Virus record (IMG/VR): IMGVR_UViG_2537561946_000006
Strand: one strand, 5' to 3'
DNA from: a virus
Lineage: Duplodnaviria; Heunggongvirae; Uroviricota; Caudoviricetes
Length of the DNA stretch: 64,000 bases
Positions 1,807 through 27,005 of the stretch are shown piece by piece (positions within the stretch are counted from its first letter, which is position 1; the number at the start of each line of letters is the position of its first letter). The notes under the pieces are model-generated. The model did no database searches, was not told the DNA's origin, and was given only the letters and a program-made list of their open reading frames with translations. The translations under genes were made by a program, and so were the position numbers.

Positions 1807-2035
1807 CCTGAATAAAATTACTCACCAACAGCCCACCAACTGTAATTCATCGATACCGTGTCGCTGGTTGATGACGTTCTGTAAGCAGAATTAAAGCCGG
1901 TTAACGTTGGGCCTTCTGCAGTCATCACGAACCCTCGCCCAGCGCCTAAAGGCGCACCGCCATCACCAGAATGAGTAAGCATGGCTCGTATAACTTCGTA
2001 TAATGTATGCTATACGAAGTTATACGTTTTGCCGC
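1807..2035 (-). pseudogene. remnant of alternative tail-fibre C-terminal arm, interrupted by loxP
   Basis: minus-strand frame from pixR reads GLGEAAKR + loxP peptide ITSYSIHYTKLY then stops; a separate 56-codon frame (MLTHSGDGG...SMNYSWWAVGE) ends at 1807 next to tfa start; arm is far shorter than the 157-codon plus-strand arm. Confidence 0.45.
1990..2023. other. loxP site, 34/34 match to wild type
   Basis: ATAACTTCGTATA-ATGTATGC-TATACGAAGTTAT read directly. Confidence 0.9.
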
Positions 2036-2061
2036 TTCTCCCAAACCAACGTTTATGAAAA
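2036..2061. other. pixR-type invertase crossover site
   Basis: TTCTCCCAAACC-AA-CGTTTATGAAAA immediately upstream of pin. Confidence 0.55.
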
Positions 2062-2115
2062 TGCAGAAATAACGAGCAAATGGCATCATTCCTGCTTTTG
2101 TCAGGGAGATCTACC

Positions 2116-2670
2116 ATGCTTATTGGCTATGTACGTGTGTCAACAAATGACCAGAACACAGATCTACAACGTAATGCGCTGAACTGTGCAGGATGTGAGC
2201 TGATTTTTGAAGACAAGATAAGCGGTACAAAGTCCGACAGACCAGGACTGAAAAAGCTGCTCAGGACATTATCGGCAGGTGACACGCTGGTGGTCTGGAA
2301 ACTGGACCGACTGGGGCGCAGTATGCGGCATCTTGTCGTGCTGGTGGAGGAGTTGCGCGAACGAGGCATCAACTTTCGTAGTCTGACGGATTCAATTGAT
2401 ACCAGTACCCCAATGGGGCGCTTTTTCTTTCATGTGATGGGTGCCCTGGCTGAAATGGAGCGTGAACTGATTGTTGAACGAACAAAAGCTGGACTGGAAG
2501 CAGCTCGCGCACAGGGACGAATTGGTGGACGTCGCCCCAAACTTACACCAGAACAATGGGAGCAGGCCGGACGATTAATTGCATCAGGCGTTCCTCGCCA
2601 GAAGGTGGCGATCATCTATGATGTTGGTATATCGACACTGTATAAGAAGTTTCCGGTCGGAGATAAATGA
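2116..2670 (+). CDS. pin: DNA invertase, serine recombinase of the Hin/Gin/Cin/Pin family
   Basis: MLIGYVRVSTNDQNTDLQ... catalytic Ser near N-terminus, 184 aa, C-terminal HTH; ATG at 2116 preceded by GGGAG. Confidence 0.95.
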   Translation: MLIGYVRVSTNDQNTDLQRNALNCAGCELIFEDKISGTKSDRPGLKKLLRTLSAGDTLVVWKLDRLGRSMRHLVVLVEELRERGINFRSLTDSIDTSTPMGRFFFHVMGALAEMERELIVERTKAGLEAARAQGRIGGRRPKLTPEQWEQAGRLIASGVPRQKVAIIYDVGISTLYKKFPVGDK

Positions 2671-5084: not shown

Positions 5085-7556
5085 TTAAAAATCAGCCTGA
5101 CTCGGGAGCAGTTTTTGCCAGATGGCTGAAACGTATTTTGCCTGGTAACGCGCATCGTGCAGGGCGTTATGGCGTTCACCTTCGAATGGAATAGTCGTTC
5201 TTGCGTCGAAATCCATCACCAGTCCCAGAGCAACCATCGTTCTTACATCGCGATCATTGGTGTAACGCCACGGGCAGGGGATCCCCTGCCGTTCATATGA
5301 ACGGCGTAAAATCACGTTGTCGAAAGTTGCACCGTTACCCCAGACCTGAACAAAAAATTCACCGGAGTTTTCGTCGATAAATTCCCGGAATTGCAGCAGT
5401 GCATCATCCAACGTGATTTCATCGGTCAGAATGGAGGATTGTGCTTCGCGTGACTGTTTCAGCCACCACTTAATGGTGTCCCGATCGATGACCCCACCTG
5501 CGGTTTCCAGATCGATAGTTTTGCTGAATTCTGGCCCCATCTCTCCGGTTGCCGGATCAAAAAACTTACCGGCTATAGCGTTTATTGGCGCATCAGGATT
5601 TTTTCCCATTGTTTCAAGGTCAATCATCAGATGGTGCCACAACCTGCTGGTGGATGAGATTTCATGATGACCGTTCACTTTAATTAAGGGATTTGCTGTT
5701 TCGCCAGTTTTATTATCGCTGGCGTGATACTGATCGCTGCCAGTGTTCTCCTTGTGCAGATGTTCAGTGCCTTCCATTTCCTCCGGATCATTTTTCTGAG
5801 CTTCAGCCTGATTCTCTTCATCGAATGTTTCCAGGTAGGTTGCGTTCCCCATCACCGCACCACAGTCAGGACAGTTGCCGCCACCGGTCTGACCGCATGC
5901 GGTGCAAACTTTTTCCAGTTCCTGTTGCACTGCTGGTTCTGGTTGTTGTTCTTCTGGCCCGTTTTGTTGCGTATCCGGGCTGTTTTGTTCCGCTTCTGGC
6001 TCATTTTGTTTCACGTTGGGCTGATTCTGGTCCTCAGCGTCGCGACTCTGGATCCCTTTCACCCATTTCGGATCATTCGGGTCGCTAATCCCTTCAACAA
6101 ATTCACCACGTGATGCAGCAAGCAATTTATCGGCGTCAGGCTGGCTGATATTGGCTGCCTGCATAATTTTGTTTACTTCGTCAGCGGTAACTTTTACCGG
6201 CTCTGATTGTTCGGAATCTTCAGCGGTATCCACATTTTGCGGTAAGCCCGTGTATGTGCCATTTTTTCGGGCAAAATATTCTTCTTTTGAGATTTCGGTA
6301 CCGCCGGCAGCCAGCGCCTTGTCCAGACCAGAAAGTTTGTTTGCCCTGCCGTATTTTTCCCCGCCCTTATCGGTAAAGACGAAATAAAATGGTCCTTCAC
6401 GCTCTACAGATGGTTCAGCTTCCACCAGGATTTCATTTTTTTGAGTATCGGATTCTGCCGTCTCCACTGGAGCAGTTTGTGCTGCTGACGGCTGGAGAGC
6501 ATCAGTAGAGCTCTGGTCTGTTTCTTCATGTTCAAACACGCCCTTTGTCGTCAGGTATTCACTGATATATTTGTTCAGTGCAACGGGATCTTTGTGAATA
6601 TCGATCGGACGTTCGCGAACAAGGCCAAAAATAGTCTGACGGTCATAGCCAAGTGCTTCGGGCTGTTTGCGCATTGATGCTGAGATACGCTTCCAGTCTT
6701 CGCGATCCTTGTCGATAACCTCATTTGTCGCCCAGCGATGGATGGTACCGTCAATGTTTCCTGCATCCACATCACCGGGCCAGAGGGCGCAGGCCAGTTC
6801 ATTGTCGAGTGTTTTCCATGTCTGTTTGTATTCGCGGCGAATGGCAACAGTGACAGCCCCGGTTTTTTCAGCAGCGTTTTCAGTGTTCTGTTGGTTGACT
6901 CTGGCGCGGGTGAGATCAACAACAGACGTGTATTTTCCGGTTTCCTTGCGTTCACCTTCGCGACGTTTTTTCCAGATGCGCATCTCTGCCTGAATTTCAG
7001 GCCATTTAGCGCCAGGCTCACATTTATGCTTAACCCACCCGATGGCATGCAGTTTAAGTTCAGGATACATGGCGTTAACTTCTGGCATTTTCATCAACGC
7101 TTCAACGATATGTCCGCCGAATGTTGCCATGTCTTCCTGTAGTAATTCCTGTGCGCTAATCACCATATCAACGGTGATGTTTTCGCATGTGTCGAATTTA
7201 ACTAGGACTGCGTTCTGTACTTCAGGGGACAGCTTGTCAAAATTGACGTTCATCGGATCGGATTCTGGTTCGACCGGTACAAAGGAAGCTGACTCCTCAT
7301 CCCAGCGGTTTTCCTGCATATATTCGGTATCCCAGGAATCGAGGGCAGGGCGGGGTATGCCGGGTTTATCCTCGCAGACAATAAATTTATAAGCGCAGTC
7401 CTGAGCTGCCGGGAATTGCTCCAGAAATTGCCAGTGAAATTTTGCGCGTGCGCGACGCTCATCACCGGCTTCAATGGCAGTGGCCACCGCAACAGCGCTA
7501 TCTTCTTTTATGGCCTGTTCGTCAGGAATAGCAGCGCAAATAAAGATTTTACTCAT
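5085..7556 (-). CDS. phage exonuclease, 823 aa, C-terminal DnaQ-like 3'-5' exonuclease domain
   Basis: IDLETMG, WGNGATFD and HNALHDARYQAKY motifs at C-terminus; CTACGQTGGGNCPDCG zinc ribbon; acidic Q/E/P-rich linker. Confidence 0.8.
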   Translation of the reverse strand: MSKIFICAAIPDEQAIKEDSAVAVATAIEAGDERRARAKFHWQFLEQFPAAQDCAYKFIVCEDKPGIPRPALDSWDTEYMQENRWDEESASFVPVEPESDPMNVNFDKLSPEVQNAVLVKFDTCENITVDMVISAQELLQEDMATFGGHIVEALMKMPEVNAMYPELKLHAIGWVKHKCEPGAKWPEIQAEMRIWKKRREGERKETGKYTSVVDLTRARVNQQNTENAAEKTGAVTVAIRREYKQTWKTLDNELACALWPGDVDAGNIDGTIHRWATNEVIDKDREDWKRISASMRKQPEALGYDRQTIFGLVRERPIDIHKDPVALNKYISEYLTTKGVFEHEETDQSSTDALQPSAAQTAPVETAESDTQKNEILVEAEPSVEREGPFYFVFTDKGGEKYGRANKLSGLDKALAAGGTEISKEEYFARKNGTYTGLPQNVDTAEDSEQSEPVKVTADEVNKIMQAANISQPDADKLLAASRGEFVEGISDPNDPKWVKGIQSRDAEDQNQPNVKQNEPEAEQNSPDTQQNGPEEQQPEPAVQQELEKVCTACGQTGGGNCPDCGAVMGNATYLETFDEENQAEAQKNDPEEMEGTEHLHKENTGSDQYHASDNKTGETANPLIKVNGHHEISSTSRLWHHLMIDLETMGKNPDAPINAIAGKFFDPATGEMGPEFSKTIDLETAGGVIDRDTIKWWLKQSREAQSSILTDEITLDDALLQFREFIDENSGEFFVQVWGNGATFDNVILRRSYERQGIPCPWRYTNDRDVRTMVALGLVMDFDARTTIPFEGERHNALHDARYQAKYVSAIWQKLLPSQADF

Positions 7557-7651
7557 TGTGTTTTAACCTCATTACAGATTTCAGGGTGAACGAATCCCTG
7601 CCATTGCTGGCATTTTTAATCCGTTGGTATGGCGTTAATATAGCTGGCGGG

Positions 7652-7840
7652 TTATCCAGCCGGTGTTTCGTTATTCAGGTACAGCGATACTTTTTTTACC
7701 GGTAGGCATTCACCAGAAATTTTTTGCTCGTCTCTTGCCTGGAGGCTGGATTCTTTACTGGCATAAATTCCGGTAATCACATTTTGTGGCTCACCCGTTA
7801 TAAGAAAAACGGTCATCACCAGTGCAAACGCTGAAGTCAC
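7652..7840 (-). CDS. small hydrophobic protein downstream of dicB (YdfD position)
   Basis: 62 aa, overlaps dicB stop; position only. Confidence 0.35.
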   Translation of the reverse strand: MTSAFALVMTVFLITGEPQNVITGIYASKESSLQARDEQKISGECLPVKKVSLYLNNETPAG

Positions 7841-8025
7841 TGCTGTTCTCCGATAATACCAAGTTCAAGAAGGGCAATTCTGGAAAGTATGGAATTATCA
7901 TTGAGAAGATAAGGTTCATATTTTCTCATCTTAATGGCATCTTCAGTAAACTCCCGGTTACTGAGCAGAACACCAATATCAAAACAACCTTCAGACGTAT
8001 TAACGTTTGGTAATAACGTTTCCAT
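7837..8025 (-). CDS. dicB: DicB-like cell division inhibitor
   Basis: METLLPNVNTSEGCFDIGV... aligns with Qin DicB MKTLLPNVNTSEGCFEIGV... (recalled), 62 aa. Confidence 0.85.
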   Translation of the reverse strand: METLLPNVNTSEGCFDIGVLLSNREFTEDAIKMRKYEPYLLNDNSILSRIALLELGIIGEQQ

Positions 8026-8199
8026 TATCGCGTCCTCAACAATGAATTTTGTGATGCAGTGCCTGGTGCCTCCAGGTGACGTTAACCAGTTAACAATTAA
8101 CGCCGGATACAGAGAATCCACCCATAACACTGTTTTTGGTTTTAACTGTTCCGCGTGCGCATAGCCGCATTCACCGCATCACAAAATTCACTTTAAAAA

Positions 8200-8252
8200 G
8201 GGCGGCAGAGCAGCCACGGAGTAAAACTGATACCGCCAAACGTCACCAGAAA
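8200..8252 (-). ncRNA. dicF: DicF small RNA
   Basis: reverse complement TTTCTGGTGACGTTTGGCGGTATCAGTTTTACTCCGTGGCTGCTCTGCCGCCC, 52/53 to recalled DicF, followed by T-tract. Confidence 0.85.
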
Positions 8253-8514
8253 ATTGATAGCAGAGGGCGTTGTAGCGAAGTTGTCACTTAAGCGTATGGT
8301 CAACCTGACAACCCGGTGTCCTCAATGGGGGAAGGAATAACCCCGCCATACTTACCGCCGCGCCATTTCGCGGATTGCCACAACCAGAAGCGCACGGTCG
8401 AAGAAATTTAACGACAAGACTTATATGCAAAGGGATCTCGCCGTGCGCTTTCGTGTTATGCCCTGACTTTTCAGGGTAAATTAACCTGTGGAAACCTGTT
8501 TTTACTGGCGCTAA

Positions 8515-17776: not shown

Positions 17777-18136
17777 ATGCGTATAGAGTTTGTTTTGCCT
17801 TACCCGCCGACGGTGAACACCTACTGGCGACGTCGTGGCAGCACATATTTTGTATCAAAAGCCGGTGAGCGTTATCGCCGGGATGTGGCACTTATTGTTC
17901 GCCAGCAGCGGCTGAAATTAAACCTGTCCGGAAGGCTGGCGATAAAGATTATTGCCGAGCCACCGGATAAGCGCCGCCGTGACCTGGACAATATTCTGAA
18001 AGCGCCGCTGGATGCGCTGACGCATGCGGGGGTGCTAATGGACGATGAGCAGTTTGATGAAATCAATATTGTACGTGGTCAGCCAGTATCTGGTGGACGG
18101 CTGGGTGTGAAGATTTACAAAATTGAGAGTGAGTGA
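17777..18136 (+). CDS. rusA: RusA Holliday junction resolvase
   Basis: 119 aa, MRIEFVLPYPPTVNTYW...RRRDLDNILKAPLDAL. Confidence 0.9.
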   Translation: MRIEFVLPYPPTVNTYWRRRGSTYFVSKAGERYRRDVALIVRQQRLKLNLSGRLAIKIIAEPPDKRRRDLDNILKAPLDALTHAGVLMDDEQFDEINIVRGQPVSGGRLGVKIYKIESE

Positions 18137-18675
18137 GCGTAAATATGATATATCCGGAAATTACAGGCAAAAGCGGCGAACATTTACGCCTGAACACGCT
18201 GGAAGCAGTCTGGATCCAGGGGAAATTACGGATGTGGGGGCGGTGGTCGTATATCGGTGGGGGTAAATCCGGAAATATGTTTAACCGGTTACTGGTTTCG
18301 AAAAAGCTGACGAAAACAGCAGTTAATGAGGTTTTACGCAGCATGAAGAAATCCGGGCTGGAAAAACCGGAACTTGAGGCATTTTTTCGGGATATGACCA
18401 GAGGGAAGCAGAAGAGCTGGTTGTCACATTGTACAGACACAGAGGCGTTGATTATTGATCGCGTTATCAGTGAGGTGCTTGGGGAATATCCCGGGCTAAT
18501 CAATATTCTCCGGCAAAGGTACGAAGGACGGGGAATGAGTAAGAGAAAAATGGCAGAATGTTTAAATCGTACTCACCCGGAATGGTGTTTCAGCACATGT
18601 GAGAAACGTATTGCAGGTTGGTTAGCCGTGGCTGAACACATGCTTTATGTACCTATGCACGATTCATTTCGATAA
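18133..18675 (+). CDS. late-gene antiterminator Q-like protein
   Basis: 180 aa directly after rusA and before terminator plus late genes; positional. Confidence 0.6.
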   Translation: MSVNMIYPEITGKSGEHLRLNTLEAVWIQGKLRMWGRWSYIGGGKSGNMFNRLLVSKKLTKTAVNEVLRSMKKSGLEKPELEAFFRDMTRGKQKSWLSHCTDTEALIIDRVISEVLGEYPGLINILRQRYEGRGMSKRKMAECLNRTHPEWCFSTCEKRIAGWLAVAEHMLYVPMHDSFR

Positions 18676-20785: not shown

Positions 20786-21218
20786 ATGTTTGGTATTTTT
20801 GGTAAAAAAAGCCCGCAGAGCGGCAACGGAAATTAAAAAGTTTGAAAAACGCGATCTGGCACAGGTGGTGATTAACGCCGCATACCTGGTGGCCTGTGCA
20901 GATGGTGAATGTGAGGCTTCCTAGAAAGCGAAGATCGAACAGGTACTGCGTAATCAGCCTGCGCTGTCCGCGTTTACGTCAGAAATTAATGCGATTAGCG
21001 CAACCATTATCGGTCAGCTGGATACGAACTTTAAAATTGGTCGTCGTGCGGCGTTACGTGAGATCGAGGATGTGAAACACGATACGCGTGAAGCGGAAGA
21101 TGTGCTGGATGTGGCGGTGGCCATTGCGGAGGCAGACGGCGAAATTGAGCCGGAAGAGCGCAAGGTGCTGGAAGAGATTGCCGGTGTTCTGGGTCTTCGT
21201 CTGGAGAATCACCTGTGA
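20786..21218 (+). pseudogene. TerB-like domain gene disrupted by frameshift in an A7 run and an in-frame TAG
   Basis: ATG at 20786 stops at 20834; shifting one base in AAAAAAA at 20804-20810 gives MFGIFGKKARRAATEIKKFEKRDLAQVVINAAYLVACADGECEAS-TAG-KAKIEQ...AVAIAEADGEIEPEERKVLEEIAGVLGL. Confidence 0.5.
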
Positions 21219-21382
21219 CGGTAAAACTGCGCCTGACTGTGGCTGCACTCCTGCTGTTTCTGGTGGTGATGGTGGATTTCACCAGCAGAATCATGTCGGT
21301 GCTGGCGGATGGGGTGCTGGTCTGCGGCATTGTGGTATTGCTGTGGCCGGTGATAAAAAGAAACAGCCTGCATAATGCTTGA
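21215..21382 (+). CDS. small hydrophobic protein (GTG start), possible
   Basis: VTVKLRLTVAALLLFLVVMVDFTSRIMSVLADGVLVCGIVVLLWPVIKRNSLHNA, 55 aa. Confidence 0.3.
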   Translation: MTVKLRLTVAALLLFLVVMVDFTSRIMSVLADGVLVCGIVVLLWPVIKRNSLHNA

Positions 21383-21696
21383 TTTTTTTGTTTGCTGTTT
21401 ATTAAAAACACTTCTGCATGGTGAATCCCCCTGTGCGGAGGGGCAATCAGCGAGTAGGTATATGGGATAATCGCGGATTCAGGTGCTGGTACTGAATTCA
21501 CCGGGAGGCACCCGGCACCATGCTTTGCCACAAAAGTGTTATTTCTGTTTTTCTCAAACTATCATCGTTATCCCTTTATTTCCGGCTGCGCATGGCGCGG
21601 CCTTTTTTTTACGACCAGCCACTGGCAGATGGTCATCCTGTGATTTGATTCCGGTTCCGGCTTTTTAACTCTGTTCCTGTACACGGGAGAAATTCG

Positions 21697-23547
21697 ATGT
21701 CGATTAAACATTATGATGTTGTCAGGGCGGCGTCGCCGTCAGACCTTGCGGAAAAGCTGACACACAAACTGAAAGAGGGCTGGCAGCCGTTTGGTAGTCC
21801 GGTGGCCATAACCCCTTATACCCTGATGCAGGCGATTGCAGCAGAAGGTGATGTGGTGGTCAGTGGTGCAACTGAGCCGGATTGGTACTACGTCATCGTA
21901 CTGGCCGGGCAGTCCAATGCAATGGCTTACGGGGAAGGGCTTCCGCTTCCGGATTCATACGATGCTCCGGATCCGCGCATTAAACAGCTGGCGCGCCGCA
22001 GTACAGTTACGCCGGGTGGGGCTGCCTGCAGATATAACGATATTATTCCGGCCGACCACTGCCTGCATGATGTGCAGGATATGAGTACGCTGAATCATCC
22101 GAAGGCAGACCTGAGCAAAGGGCAGTACGGCTGTGTCGGCCAGGGCTTACATATTGCCAAAAAACTGCTTCCGTATATCCCGAATAACGCGGGGATCCTG
22201 CTGGTACCATGCTGTCGTGGTGGTTCTGCATTCACCCAGGGCGCTGAGGGGACATTCAGTGCGGACACGGGGGCCAGCCAGGATTCGGCACGCTGGGGTG
22301 TGGGTAAACCGTTATATCAGGACCTGATTGCGCGCACTAAAGCTGCATTACAGAAGAACCCGAAAAATGTGTTGCTGGCGGTGTGCTGGATGCAGGGAGA
22401 GTTTGACATGAGCGCCGCCACCCACGCACAGCAACCTGCGCTGTTTACAGCCATGCTGACACAGTTTCGTGCTGACCTCTCCGTGTTTAACGCGCAGTGC
22501 CATGGTGGCAGTGCTGCAGATGTGCCGTGGATTTGTGGTGACACGACGTATTACTGGAAAAATACATACGCTACCCAGTACGACACCGTGTACGGCGGGT
22601 ATAAAAACAGGGAGAGTGAGGGCGTTTATTTTGTGCCCTTCATGACAGACGGTAACGGCGTCAATACCGCCACTAACGCGCCGGCAGAAGATCCGGATAT
22701 TCCGGCATCAGGATATTACGGTGCGGCATCGAGAACGAATGGAAACCAGGTATCATCAAACCGCCCGACACATTTCAGTTCATGGGCGCGCAGGAGCATT
22801 ATTCCGGATCGTCTGGCAACCGCTATTCTGAACGCAGCCGGGCGCACCTCAGCCTTCATCAGTGGTAAGGCACCGGAAATCAAACCCTCGCCCGGCGGCA
22901 ACACGCCATCGGGTCCGTCTGCAGATACGTCCGTTCGCACAATCTCCCTGCTGCCGGCAGCCGGAGAGGCTGCTGCGCAGGGCTGGAGCATTAAGGATGG
23001 CGGAATTCAGTTGTCAGATGGTGTATTTAAGATCACCAAGCAGAGCAATAAAACCTGGTCCCTGACGCATCCGGTGGATGACGCAATTACCCTGCTGACA
23101 CAGGGCGGCAGACTGACCTGTAAGTTCCGCCTGTCAGGCGCACTGACCAACAATCAGTTCGGGCTGGGGATTTATCTGTATACGGATGCTCCCGTTCCTG
23201 ATGGTGTGGCGATGACGGGTACCGGTAATCCGTTCCTGATGTCGTACTTCACTCAGACCACTGACGGCAGAGTGAATCTGATGCATCACAGGAAAGCCGG
23301 AAACACGAAGCTGGGGGAGTTCGGCGATTACGGTAACGACTGGCAGACGCTGGAGCTGGTGTTCACCGCCGGCAGTGCCACGGTTACTCCGAAACTGAAT
23401 GGAGTGGCTGGCCCGGCATTCCAGGTTATAAAAGACAGTCTGACACTGGGACTGAATGCGCTGACGCTGACGGATGTTACAAAAAATGCAGCGTATGGCG
23501 TTGAGATAGAAAGTCTGGTGCTGGAGATAAATGCACCGGCAGCATAA
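21697..23547 (+). CDS. nanS-p: prophage sialate O-acetylesterase (NanS-p type, SGNH hydrolase)
   Basis: 616 aa; VLAGQSNAMAYGEG block; position between stx-slot and lysis genes. Confidence 0.8.
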   Translation: MSIKHYDVVRAASPSDLAEKLTHKLKEGWQPFGSPVAITPYTLMQAIAAEGDVVVSGATEPDWYYVIVLAGQSNAMAYGEGLPLPDSYDAPDPRIKQLARRSTVTPGGAACRYNDIIPADHCLHDVQDMSTLNHPKADLSKGQYGCVGQGLHIAKKLLPYIPNNAGILLVPCCRGGSAFTQGAEGTFSADTGASQDSARWGVGKPLYQDLIARTKAALQKNPKNVLLAVCWMQGEFDMSAATHAQQPALFTAMLTQFRADLSVFNAQCHGGSAADVPWICGDTTYYWKNTYATQYDTVYGGYKNRESEGVYFVPFMTDGNGVNTATNAPAEDPDIPASGYYGAASRTNGNQVSSNRPTHFSSWARRSIIPDRLATAILNAAGRTSAFISGKAPEIKPSPGGNTPSGPSADTSVRTISLLPAAGEAAAQGWSIKDGGIQLSDGVFKITKQSNKTWSLTHPVDDAITLLTQGGRLTCKFRLSGALTNNQFGLGIYLYTDAPVPDGVAMTGTGNPFLMSYFTQTTDGRVNLMHHRKAGNTKLGEFGDYGNDWQTLELVFTAGSATVTPKLNGVAGPAFQVIKDSLTLGLNALTLTDVTKNAAYGVEIESLVLEINAPAA

Positions 23548-23994
23548 TAAAAAAAGAGCCAGCGACTGACCTGAAAGAAGACGCTGGCTAAAAGGCCTTA
23601 TATGTTTGTAGAGACTTATTTTTCACAGACAGCAATGATGCCTGTCAATATATTATCAATATGCGGATTGTTTCAGTTACAGATGCTTTATTAAGGAAAA
23701 AAACAGCCAGCACTGACTTTCGGTGGAGAGGTGCTGGCTCAGAAGGATAGTTGGATTTCACATGATACTTATGCCTGGCGGTATATTTTCTGACAGACAG
23801 TGACGGGTGTTGTCAAGATATTGTGTCATTTATAACCTGAATCAGGGGAGGCCGGAATGTTATCTGGCATTTTTAGCAGAGCCTGAATGCCATAATCACG
23901 GCTCCCGGAGTTGGCCGTCAGTGGGTGACACTGGCGGTTTTTTTGTTTTTCTTTACTTTCATTTTCTGTCGGCGGTGACGGAGACATACATCAG

Positions 23995-24201
23995 ATGGAA
24001 AAAATCACAACGGGTGTGTCATACACCACGTCAGCGGTGGGGACGGGATACTGGTTACTGCAGCTGCTGGACAAAGTCTCTCCGTCCCAGTGGGTGGCAA
24101 TCGGTGTGCTGGGGAGTCTGCTGTTTGGCCTGCTGACGTATCTGACTAACCTTTATTTCAAGATTAAAGAAGATAAGCGTAAGGTGGCGCGGGGAGAGTA
24201 G
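23995..24201 (+). CDS. S: pinholin (phage 21 S-type)
   Basis: 68 aa, ...[36 protein letters not shown] closely matches recalled S21. Confidence 0.85.
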
Positions 24202-24456
24202 TCGATGAATAAACAATACGAACTGGTTGTAAAATGAATATTTCTAACTGAAAAAACGTTCCATGAGGTAAGAAAAGGTCACAGGCAATCAATAACAGGA
24301 CGTGATGAAAGACCCTTGCATTTGTGCGCTTTCTCTTTAGATAGCAGCAGATACTGAAAATCTGAGTTGTCGGGGAGTCAGGGATACAGCTGTGCAAGAG
24401 TTGGTCATTGTGATTCCATTGAAATCCTGTATGCCATGAAGGGCAGGATTTTATGG

Positions 24457-24771
24457 CTACCTGAGCTTTGGTGATAGTAAGTTGAAAATTCGCATTTTTT
24501 GCTGACATGCGTAACGAGAATCCCATAAGCAGGGAGGACTTAATTCTTCATTAACCCATGCGTTGATATTATGTTTCAGCCGTTGAAGCATCAGCGGTGT
24601 TAATGTTGTGGTAATAATATCCAGCGTTTTATGTGAGATCTTACCGTAAGGGTCTGCAAGAATGCTGCTTGTTGCTTCGTTATTATCTGCCATCAGAAGA
24701 AGTAACTCTGATTTAACGTTTTCTGTCATTAGTTGTAAAAATCTTCTGCGCAAACTTTCTTTACTGTTCAT
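24457..24771 (-). CDS. hypothetical protein in AT-rich insert between holin and endolysin
   Basis: 104 aa minus-strand ORF; region 24202-24888 is AT-rich and absent from the canonical S-R junction. Confidence 0.35.
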   Translation of the reverse strand: MNSKESLRRRFLQLMTENVKSELLLLMADNNEATSSILADPYGKISHKTLDIITTTLTPLMLQRLKHNINAWVNEELSPPCLWDSRYACQQKMRIFNLLSPKLR

Positions 24772-24888
24772 TTATATGGCTTCATTTGTTGTAATCTGCT
24801 GCGTCTCAAGGGATATGTTTATGAGAGCGACCATGAGTGTTGGATTATATACCTAACATATCAAGGGATTAGAAATCGATAAATCCCC

Positions 24889-25422
24889 ATGAACGAAAAA
24901 ATAAAATACGGCCTGTCGGCTGCCGTTCTGGCGCTGATTGGTGCAGGTGCTTCTGCGCCTGAAATCCTCGACCAGTTTCTGGATGAAAAGGAAGGTAACC
25001 ACACCACGGCATACCGTGATGGTGCGGGGATCTGGACCATCTGCCGTGGTGCCATTCTGGTGGATGGTAAGCCTGTTATTCCTGGCATGAAGCTGTCAAA
25101 GGAAAAATGCGACCGGGTTAATGCCATCGAACGTGACAAGGCTCTGGCATGGGTGGAGAAAAACATCCGGGTGCCGCTGACCGAACCCCAGAAAGCGGGG
25201 ATCGCGTCATTCTGTCCGTACAACATTGGCCCCGGTAAGTGCTTCCCGTCGACGTTTTATAAACGAATTAATGCAGGCGATCGAAAAGGTGCCTGTGAGG
25301 CGATTCGCTGGTGGATTAAGGACGGTGGCAGAGACTGCCGTATCCGTTCAAATAATTGCTACGGTCAGGTCTCACGGCGTGACCAGGAGAGCGCGCTGGC
25401 GTGCTGGGACATCGACAGATAG
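24889..25422 (+). CDS. R: signal-anchor-release endolysin (T4-type lysozyme fold)
   Basis: 177 aa, N-terminal hydrophobic SAR segment YGLSAAVLALIGAGASA, lysozyme block EGNHTTAYRDGAGIWTICRG. Confidence 0.9.
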   Translation: MNEKIKYGLSAAVLALIGAGASAPEILDQFLDEKEGNHTTAYRDGAGIWTICRGAILVDGKPVIPGMKLSKEKCDRVNAIERDKALAWVEKNIRVPLTEPQKAGIASFCPYNIGPGKCFPSTFYKRINAGDRKGACEAIRWWIKDGGRDCRIRSNNCYGQVSRRDQESALACWDIDR

Positions 25423-25757
25423 CAGAATATTTTCCTGAAAAATGACGTTGGCCAACGCGGGTGGATAACACGAAATCCTGAAAACTGGTAAAACCTAAGT
25501 GAATAAAAGTAAAAACCCCGTTTGTTGGCAGCAAGCGGGGTTTTGTGTTTTCTGACCTTGAGTAAGGCAAGGGAGAAATTATGGGTAGGGAGGTACTTTC
25601 CCTGTGAGGAAGTATAAAAGATTCTTTCTGAGGTTGTCCATTATGAAAGGCATTGAAGTGGAGACGCCAGCCAGTCTGGATTTAACAAGAGCGGCAGCTT
25701 TTGCCATTCGTATTGTGGCCATTGCTGTTCTGGTCTGGGCAATCCGTTGGTGGTGAT

Positions 25758-26225
25758 ATGAACCGTGTTCTGTGCGTGGTTATCATTGTCCTGCTGGTGG
25801 CCTGTGGTGCGCTTAGTCTGGGGCTGAATCATTACCGTGATCACGCCATCATCTACAAAGAGCAGCGCGATAAAAAAGCCAGTGAGCTGGAGCTGGCGAA
25901 CGCGACAATTACTGATATGCAGATACGCCAGCGTGATGTCGCTGCACTTGATGCCAGATACTCGAGGGAATTAGCCGATGCGAGAGCTGAAAATGAAACT
26001 CTGCGTGCTGATGTTGCCGCTGGTCGTAAGCGCCTGCGGATCAACGCCACCTGCTCCGGTACCGTGCGTGAAGCCACCGGCACCTCCGGCGTGGATAATG
26101 CAACCGGCCCCCGACTGGCAGACACCGCTGAACGGGATTATTTCATCCTCAGAGAACGGCTGATGGCAATGCAGAAGCAACTGGAAGGAGCACAGGAATA
26201 TATCCGTACCCAGTGTATACCGTGA
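25758..26225 (+). CDS. Rz: Rz i-spanin
   Basis: ATG at 25758, N-terminal TM, coiled-coil; Rz1 embedded in +1 frame. Confidence 0.8.
   Translation: MNRVLCVVIIVLLVACGALSLGLNHYRDHAIIYKEQRDKKASELELANATITDMQIRQRDVAALDARYSRELADARAENETLRADVAAGRKRLRINATCSGTVREATGTSGVDNATGPRLADTAERDYFILRERLMAMQKQLEGAQEYIRTQCIP
25993..26163 (+). CDS. Rz1: Rz1 o-spanin lipoprotein (embedded)
   Basis: MKLCVLMLPLVVSACGSTPPAP... lipobox VVSAC, Pro-rich. Confidence 0.7.
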   Translation: MKLCVLMLPLVVSACGSTPPAPVPCVKPPAPPAWIMQPAPDWQTPLNGIISSSENG

Positions 26226-26690
26226 TGTTTTGTTATGAAGGTGTTACTGGTAACGTTAAGGTAATTTAACAAAGAGTCAGTTCCGGACTTTATAGTGTGC
26301 TCAGTTCATGGCCAAAAACGATTTCTGTGATAAATATTTTGAATATTATTTACAGGTAAATGGAGTGGGGCACATGGATAGAAATATTACAATAGAGAAT
26401 GAAGTATATGCCCGTATTGTATGGGCAGAGAAGGCAAAAACACGGTAATTCCGTGTGTTGCCATGATACCTGATTGGCAGAATAGTTGTTTGGTTTTGAG
26501 TATATAGTCAGCGTTTTTTGTTCAGTAATTGCTCCCTCAAAAAATAATAAAATAAGGTGATTATTTTTGTTTATTATTTAGTTTTTTTTGTGTGTTGTTT
26601 TATTGTTTTTGCGTGGCTTGTTTTTTATTGTTATTTCATTAAGGGAAGGTAAATTCAGGATGGCAGTCTGTAGATAATCGGAGGTCACTT

Positions 26691-27005
26691 ATGCTACATG
26701 ATCACGTGGCAGAATGTCTGGAGAAAAAAGGACTGTACCGGAGAGCAGCTGAACGATGGGCAAAAGTGATGGTACAGCTAAGTGATGACCAGAAAAGAAA
26801 AGTGGCGGCACAGAAACGAGCAGAGTGTTTGCGTAAGGCGCGCCGGACTCCGGTTTCACCGGTGAACCTGACCGAAATAAAACAAGCGGTCAACAGACTA
26901 CATTCTGAGTTGGGAATGGGATTTGAAGAGCGGCGGGTATTCCGACGATATAAAGGGACAGGAGAACAGAATACGTCCGGAAACGCGCGGTCAAAAAAAT
27001 GCTAA
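26691..27005 (+). CDS. pch: PerC-family transcriptional activator (Pch-like)
   Basis: MLHDHVAECLEKKGLYRRAAERWAKVMVQLSDDQKR... matches recalled PerC/Pch; long AT-rich upstream region. Confidence 0.8.
   Translation: MLHDHVAECLEKKGLYRRAAERWAKVMVQLSDDQKRKVAAQKRAECLRKARRTPVSPVNLTEIKQAVNRLHSELGMGFEERRVFRRYKGTGEQNTSGNARSKKC

Follow-up and report, generated by a model that had tools for sequence, protein, structure and literature searches.

Phage 21 itself carries its holin gene S and its endolysin gene R side by side. In an E. coli prophage with what appears to be a lysis cassette of the same type, these two genes are separated by several hundred base pairs of AT-rich DNA, and an ORF lies there on the opposite strand. 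What this DNA is, and what its antisense ORF does, was the question addressed here. The analysis covered a 64,000-nt stretch of the prophage record IMGVR_UViG_2537561946_000006, referred to as the window. The ORF, 104 aa long and on the minus strand, was designated X.

The lysis region of the window

The late region of the window was lambdoid, with every late gene on the plus strand. The gene for a Q-like antiterminator (18133–18675) was followed by a DNA methylase gene and two tRNA genes, and then by the gene for a 616-aa esterase of the SASA/NanS-p type (21697–23547). No stx was present after the tRNA genes and before the esterase gene, the site of stxAB in Stx phages. This interval contained a 166-aa ORF on the minus strand (21031–21531), a putative gene, for which no Pfam match was found.

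S (23995–24201) encoded 68 aa and matched the phage-21-type class II holins, or pinholins (PF04971, E = 1.9e-32). R (24889–25422) encoded a phage lysozyme of 177 aa (PF00959, E = 7.6e-24), and Rz (25701–26225) matched PF03245. A hydrophobic, SAR-like segment was visible at the N-terminus of R (KYGLSAAVLALIGAGASA). With an S21-family class II holin, a lysozyme of this kind and an Rz spanin, the cassette may be assigned from its sequence to the phage 21 type.

The S gene of phage 21 has a dual-start arrangement for antiholin and holin. In the window, positions 23986–23997 read ATA CAT CAG ATG, and in relatives ATG TAC CAG ATG. The upstream in-frame codon (23986–23988), an ATG in relatives that gives a 71-aa form in the alignment, was thus ATA, and only the 68-aa start was left. 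The dual-start arrangement seems to be missing in this S allele.

On the 3' side of Rz, the plus strand carried a PerC-family gene, Nu1 and the terminase gene. The PerC-family gene (26691–27005, 104 aa; PF06069, E = 3.8e-44) lay between Rz and the gene for the terminase small subunit. It encoded a transcriptional activator that resembled the Pch/PerC-type regulators of EHEC prophages, and was preceded by very AT-rich DNA (26200–26700, GC 0.30–0.37).

The gap between S and R was 687 bp long with a GC content of 0.35–0.42, against 0.52–0.57 in S, R and the upstream esterase gene. An earlier note on this DNA had described such an AT-rich insert with a 104-aa ORF on the opposite strand; its coordinates were correct, and the contrast in GC content was confirmed. 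Direct or inverted repeats flanking the insert were absent, which left an origin from a transposon or IS element unsupported.

The interval between S and R in related phages

The earlier note had regarded the site between S and R as an unusual place for an accessory gene. This was not borne out, for the slot is commonly filled in Stx and lambdoid relatives. Among the top phage records, all annotated matches spanning an S21-type S through R had holin and endolysin separated by a third gene, in most cases labelled 'YdfR family protein' and otherwise hypothetical. Relatives without X had S, a short ydfR and R, or the forward gene only. In Stx2 phage 86 and Stx2_12E129, a homologue of X lay antisense in the same slot.

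The forward gene of the slot was modular. An N-terminal YdfR/DUF1327 domain (MNKQYELVVKGINNYPDK...), a coiled-coil linker and a conserved C-module were found in varied combinations, which gave proteins of 114 to 385 aa. The C-module corresponded to phrog_1085 (...GRCMGYLQxAAEIEALAxGADKDAVVREALLRDFDNPPFKKxPxxWxxPGLTYLKGRI). Some intact forward partners of X carried DUF1327 (PF07041), and no other Pfam domain was detected in X or the partners. DNA of the C-module was present in 786 of 5426 complete E. coli genomes, and in Stx2_95 the C-module occurred without X.

[quoted passage not shown] This may be taken as a hint that the forward proteins bear on RNA metabolism in late infection; it says nothing direct about X.

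The same slot of PhiR12_2 (L090) contained a different antisense gene (1943–2203, minus strand; XSB41701), annotated as DUF1823. This 86-aa gene shared the layout of X, in that it and a forward DUF1327 gene converged within the S–R interval. It was rejected as a relative of X (hhalign probability, 0.2%). It seems that small antisense genes have entered the S–R slot more than once.

Evidence that X is a gene

X (24457–24771, minus strand) was intact. It matched the HMM of phrog_1853 (E = 3.5e-47), with residues 1–102 aligned to positions 57–158 of the 159 in the profile. Full-length homologues of 104–106 aa were obtained at 40–79% identity. These ranged from 64–79% in E. coli, through 52–53% in Stx2_12E129 and Stx2 phage 86 (orf6, BAF34038, at 53%), to 40–45% in Salmonella enterica. 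In pairwise comparisons of 12 alleles by the Nei–Gojobori method, dN/dS was about 0.14–0.3 where dS was unsaturated; between the window and L002, for example, dS was 0.67, dN 0.12 and omega 0.17. Residues E17, K20, P41, G43, W72, E76, Q91 and K92 of X were invariant. These comparisons indicated that X is a genuine gene under purifying selection and not a chance ORF.

A spurious ORF in a non-coding spacer might have been suspected from the AT-rich DNA, the lack of a Pfam family and the weak Shine–Dalgarno element of the window allele. Such a reading has to contend with a dN/dS well under 1, full-length homologues that reach down to 22–45% identity and include those of Salmonella, a confident AF2 fold obtained from 6 sequences only, and the slower evolution of X compared with the DNA adjoining it (see below). 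We give it virtually no chance, and regard it as refuted by the comparative data. The earlier note had counted, as evidence against a gene, the finding of the insert in many phages as a spacer with no conserved ORF; what was found was an ORF both conserved and constrained.

PGAP calls a start for X that gives a 90-aa product. Residues 1–14 of the 104-aa form were conserved among homologues. The alleles of the Stx2 phage 86 type have Ile at position 15, which makes the internal start impossible there. In addition, alignment of the upstream regions of 13 alleles revealed a Shine–Dalgarno-like GAGG or GAGGA 7–9 nt 5' of the 104-aa start in most of them. The corresponding element in the window was GAAG (24780–24783, minus strand), 8 nt 5' of the start codon. 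For these three reasons the 104-aa start is supported over that called by PGAP. A conserved upstream ORF, five codons long and reaching into the start of X, was also considered and rejected, since the alignment fitted a Shine–Dalgarno element, (A)TGAGG, better.

Family and distribution of X

In EDL933, a protein identical to X over its 104 aa bears the annotation 'unknown protein encoded within prophage CP-933O'; this protein was found on about 1000 contigs. The statement in the earlier note that the protein has no recognisable family was right for Pfam, NCBIfam and PADLOC, where no match was obtained; it failed to hold in that X belongs to PHROG 1853 and is already annotated in CP-933O. The EDL933 protein and orf6 of phage 86 share with X the family, the length, the slot and the antisense orientation. 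In phage 86 the forward partner is intact; in the window it is dead, as described below. To this extent X is an ordinary case: the site is known to vary among lysis cassettes, and the gene had been annotated before as hypothetical.

The 687-bp insert was present in 631 of 5426 complete E. coli genomes, at 754 places (at most 3 per genome), nearly all at 99% identity or more. Its DNA had no match among 50,697 deposited phage genomes, even at blastn sensitivity, and the phage alleles of 52–53% identity were recovered by protein-level search only. HMMER searching of 1.8 billion representatives of 50%-identity clusters gave 20 hits, all from the same small family except one HEAT-repeat false positive. 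A profile search of a set of 5.8 billion proteins extended the family only to Salmonella, with every match hypothetical, and GTDB species representatives (one genome per species) yielded no locus. By these searches the family is very small and confined to prophages of E. coli and Salmonella. X was antisense within the lysis region in all 75 IMG/VR loci and in the GenBank phages.

In some alleles (L061, L069, L070 and L071) the C-terminus of X was frameshifted or extended, to 115–128 aa. Damage to X was occasional, and much rarer than damage to the partner in the sampled loci. In L001 (O157:H7 PV15-279), the lysozyme gene was cut by an IS3-family element and the terminase and portal genes were frameshifted (6688–8349). 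This prophage is defective, yet its X was 100% identical.

A decayed partner beside X

In all divergent alleles with enough context, X lay tail-to-tail with a forward gene carrying the C-module. The forward partner was 185–385 aa long (phage 86 orf5 is intact, with 268 aa), and the 3' ends of the two genes lay up to 20 bp apart in some alleles and overlapped by up to 33 bp in others. The pair was found in four contexts: in the gap between an S21-type S and R, and upstream of S21-type (Salmonella), HP1-type and lambda-S-type holins. The upstream location applied to the Salmonella prophages and L073, where the holin was of the S21 or HP1 type and a HicAB pair lay beside, and to L096 and L097, where it was of the lambda-S type. 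In Salmonella-type contexts, the HicA/HicB toxin–antitoxin genes directly adjoined the forward gene/X pair, likewise upstream of the holin, as in L073 (4827–5737), L091 (5260–5894) and L093 (5587–6224).

In the window, the DNA between S and X (24202–24456, plus strand) was compared with the partner genes of the relatives by blastn and tblastx, and was recognized as a decayed, internally deleted remnant of such a gene. It began with ten ydfR-like codons (MNKQYELVVK), which ran into a TGA stop where the deletion had joined the sequence (24205–24237). This start was 87% identical over 38 bp to ydfR of YYZ-2008 and to orf5 of Stx2 phage 86, and the ten residues were identical to the N-terminus of the DUF1327 protein of PhiR12_2. 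Downstream of it was a fragment of the C-module (24287–24409), from the region GRCMGYLQxAAEIEALAxGADKDAVVRE and interrupted by an in-frame stop, which matched the partner gene of LC567842 at 39% over 41 aa (tblastx, E = 4e-5). In another frame, the ORF at 24367–24474 contained LYAMKGRI, which by eye resembled the partner's C-terminal LTYLKGRI.

The remnant itself was non-coding, its longest forward ORF being 12 aa. With ten codons and then a stop, it is a pseudogene fragment and not a member of DUF1327 (PF07041). We interpreted these matches to mean that 255 of the 687 bp of the insert, overlooked by the earlier note, are what is left of a dead forward gene. At the other end, 33 bp immediately before R (24854–24886, plus strand) were 100% identical to the ydfR–R junction of another E. 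coli genome. This R leader is common to phages with only ydfR in the slot, and marks the right-hand limit of the DNA specific to X.

All 48 window-type loci in IMG/VR shared the same remnant of 256–257 bp, which pointed to one ancestral deletion. A second, independent form with X only retained 48–94 bp (L067, L068 and L071). Elsewhere the partner had a nonsense codon (L002–L005) or a frameshift (L006, L009, L069, L087 and L088), and X was usually intact in these loci. A poly-G tract in the partner gene (about L007:4640–4660) had 7 G in L007, where the gene was intact (222 aa), and 9 G in the frameshifted L006 and L009. The tract could be prone to slippage, or the difference could be an assembly artefact. 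In the window-type locus L020 (IMG/VR), the gap between S and X was 2882 bp instead of 256 bp; the extra DNA of about 2.6 kb is presumably a mobile element inserted into the remnant.

From these comparisons, the insert would be the leftover of a two-gene module that resides in or beside the lysis cassette of lambdoid prophages of E. coli and Salmonella. One part of the module would be a forward gene of the late operon, with an N-terminus of the YdfR/DUF1327 or coiled-coil type and the C-module. The other would be X, small and converging tail-to-tail on it. In the lineage of the window, one ancestral deletion and later decay would have killed the forward gene, with X kept intact under purifying selection.

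Fate of X after loss of the partner

Three other members of the X-only lineage (L057, L058 and L060) were compared with the window as the reference. Identity was 92–94% in the remnant, 96.5–97.8% in X, 89–92% in the spacer between X and R, 73–88% in S and 83–86.5% in R. Within this lineage, divergence was thus 6–8% in the remnant and 2–3.5% in X. Between the window and L060, X had 7 synonymous and 4 nonsynonymous differences (omega 0.14). The remnant appeared to drift at about the rate of synonymous sites, and X to stay constrained. Constraint that outlasts the partner suggested that X has a use independent of it.

The same X-only cassette lay between S alleles that were 73–100% identical and R alleles that were 83–100% identical. 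This suggested that the cassette has been recombined into differing S and R backgrounds. As a counterpoint, X-only cassettes could owe their abundance to hitch-hiking on successful prophages, and not to a benefit of their own.

The pairing of X with the forward gene raised the possibility that X serves to neutralize its partner or to give immunity against it. The C-module protein would be an effector expressed late, which X, produced in the lysogen, would bind and block. An orphan X would serve in anti-addiction or in exclusion of related superinfecting phages that carry the effector. A convergent pair with touching or overlapping 3' ends, kept from E. coli to Salmonella in four lysis-cassette contexts, is what such a role would favour, as are the repeated decay of the partner with X retained and the constraint on X after the loss. 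The alleles of X also differed from one another much more than the adjoining genes did, a pattern common among specificity determinants. The two components did not co-diverge, however: L007 and L077 had C-modules that were 93% identical and X proteins that were only 50% identical. Moreover, the C-module stands without X in Stx2_95, the genes are convergent instead of forming an operon as in classical toxin–antitoxin pairs, and no toxin or antitoxin signature was found with PADLOC or Pfam. The AF2 monomer model of the partner protein was poor (pLDDT 49), too poor to interpret. We consider the immunity role unlikely, and favour an accessory role for X of its own, of which the expression and the product were considered next.

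Expression of X

X is antisense to the Q-dependent late transcript of the plus strand, and hence late transcription cannot express it. Its transcription would start from a site of its own, in the 117-bp spacer between X and R or inside R. On the minus strand of this region, TTGATA (24864–24859) and a perfect TATAAT (24849–24844) were seen, at a spacing that is not canonical for sigma-70. They are candidate promoter elements for X (24844–24864), and TATAAT or TACAAT occurred in 8 of 13 alleles. A consensus scan at 9 of 12 matches did not find a minus-strand promoter for X.

No intrinsic terminator was found after X, including the 256 bp from its stop codon to S. A transcript from the X promoter might therefore run antisense through the remnant into S, where it could damp leaky expression of S and R in the lysogen or tune the timing of lysis, the protein being secondary. 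Purifying selection on the amino acid sequence (dN/dS 0.14–0.3) fits poorly with an effect at the RNA level. So does the location of the gene in Salmonella and L073, upstream of the holin and pointing away from it. The folding energy downstream of X was no better than that of shuffled sequence (z = −0.01), and the region had no match in Rfam; a structured RNA or known RNA family was unsupported on both counts. An RNA-level element is very improbable, and we return to X as a protein. As with bor of lambda, it is likely to be expressed in the lysogenic state.

The product of X

AF2 modelled X, from six sequences only, as a five-helix bundle (mean pLDDT 84.7, pTM 0.74). The predicted product is a soluble, all-helical protein of about 12 kDa. 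Its sequence had no signal peptide, lipobox or transmembrane segment. Pfam and NCBIfam scans gave no hit, and no enzymatic, membrane or nucleic-acid-binding domain was found. A PDB profile search returned a designed protein as the best match (E = 0.04), and a search of BFVD returned nothing at E < 1. X, its homologue P0009 and the partner proteins had no hit in PADLOC-DB v2 at E up to 1. The other two ORFs of the insert (120 aa, minus strand; 64 aa, plus strand) and the partner proteins were compared with Pfam, NCBIfam and PADLOC as well, with no informative result. The searchable literature contained nothing on the expression or experimental role of X; the single relevant paper concerned YdfR itself.

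The earlier note had proposed X as a candidate for an accessory or defence-related gene. The accessory part stood. A stand-alone function in anti-phage defence or superinfection exclusion would suit a gene that is AT-rich, antisense, prophage-borne and very common in STEC and EHEC prophages, with alleles deeply diverged inside otherwise similar flanks. Defence was otherwise unsupported. X is a single helical protein of 12 kDa in which no enzymatic, membrane or nucleic-acid-binding domain was found, no PADLOC model matched, and the searchable literature yielded no experiment on it. A role in defence appears rather improbable. Since the five-helix bundle bears neither a catalytic nor a DNA-binding signature, X would most likely act by binding another protein, and this is the activity that we favour for it.

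Discussion

The reading we prefer, with a probability of roughly 0.6, is that X encodes an accessory protein of a moron-like kind. Its expression would not depend on the late operon and would probably take place in the lysogen, and the product would act by protein binding. The resemblance to a moron claimed in the earlier note was upheld by the extra DNA between S and R, its GC content of 0.35–0.42 against 0.52–0.57, and the genuine gene on the opposite strand.

The bor gene of lambda is a moron that opposes late transcription and is expressed in the lysogen from its own promoter. X resembles bor (and lom) in being small and accessory, in its deviant base composition and in its position beside the lysis genes, and like bor it is directed against late transcription. 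On the other hand, Bor is a secreted lipoprotein encoded downstream of Rz, whereas X lies between S and R and has neither a signal peptide nor a lipobox; the two proteins share no similarity in sequence or fold. The ydfR (DUF1327) gene of K-12 Qin and the YdfR genes of Stx phages occupy the same S–R slot, and the remnant in the window starts with a YdfR-type N-terminus. These genes are forward and co-transcribed with the lysis genes, whereas X, on the opposite strand, has a sequence unrelated to theirs. Orphan antitoxins and anti-addiction modules of type II likewise consist of one small partner that survives the decay of the other. The X pair departs from type II toxin–antitoxin systems in its convergent genes and in the absence of toxin or antitoxin domains and of co-divergence.

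A bolder proposal would make X and the forward C-module protein a new two-component module of the lysis cassettes of enterobacterial lambdoid phages. The forward protein, with a YdfR-type domain reported to bind RNase E, would act late, and X produced in the lysogen would block it. The orphan X, found in about 12% of complete E. coli genomes, would be an exclusion factor against related superinfecting phages, whose late effector it would disarm. We regard this as a long shot.

For annotation, X should be started at the codon that gives 104 aa, and the adjoining 255 bp treated as a pseudogene remnant and not as a spacer. The only lead beyond the ordinary is that the convergent pair is conserved, and yet has lost one of its members repeatedly. 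If the C-module gene and X form a functional unit, they would be a new accessory layer for lambdoid lysis cassettes, and this could explain the spread of orphan X through EHEC and STEC prophages.
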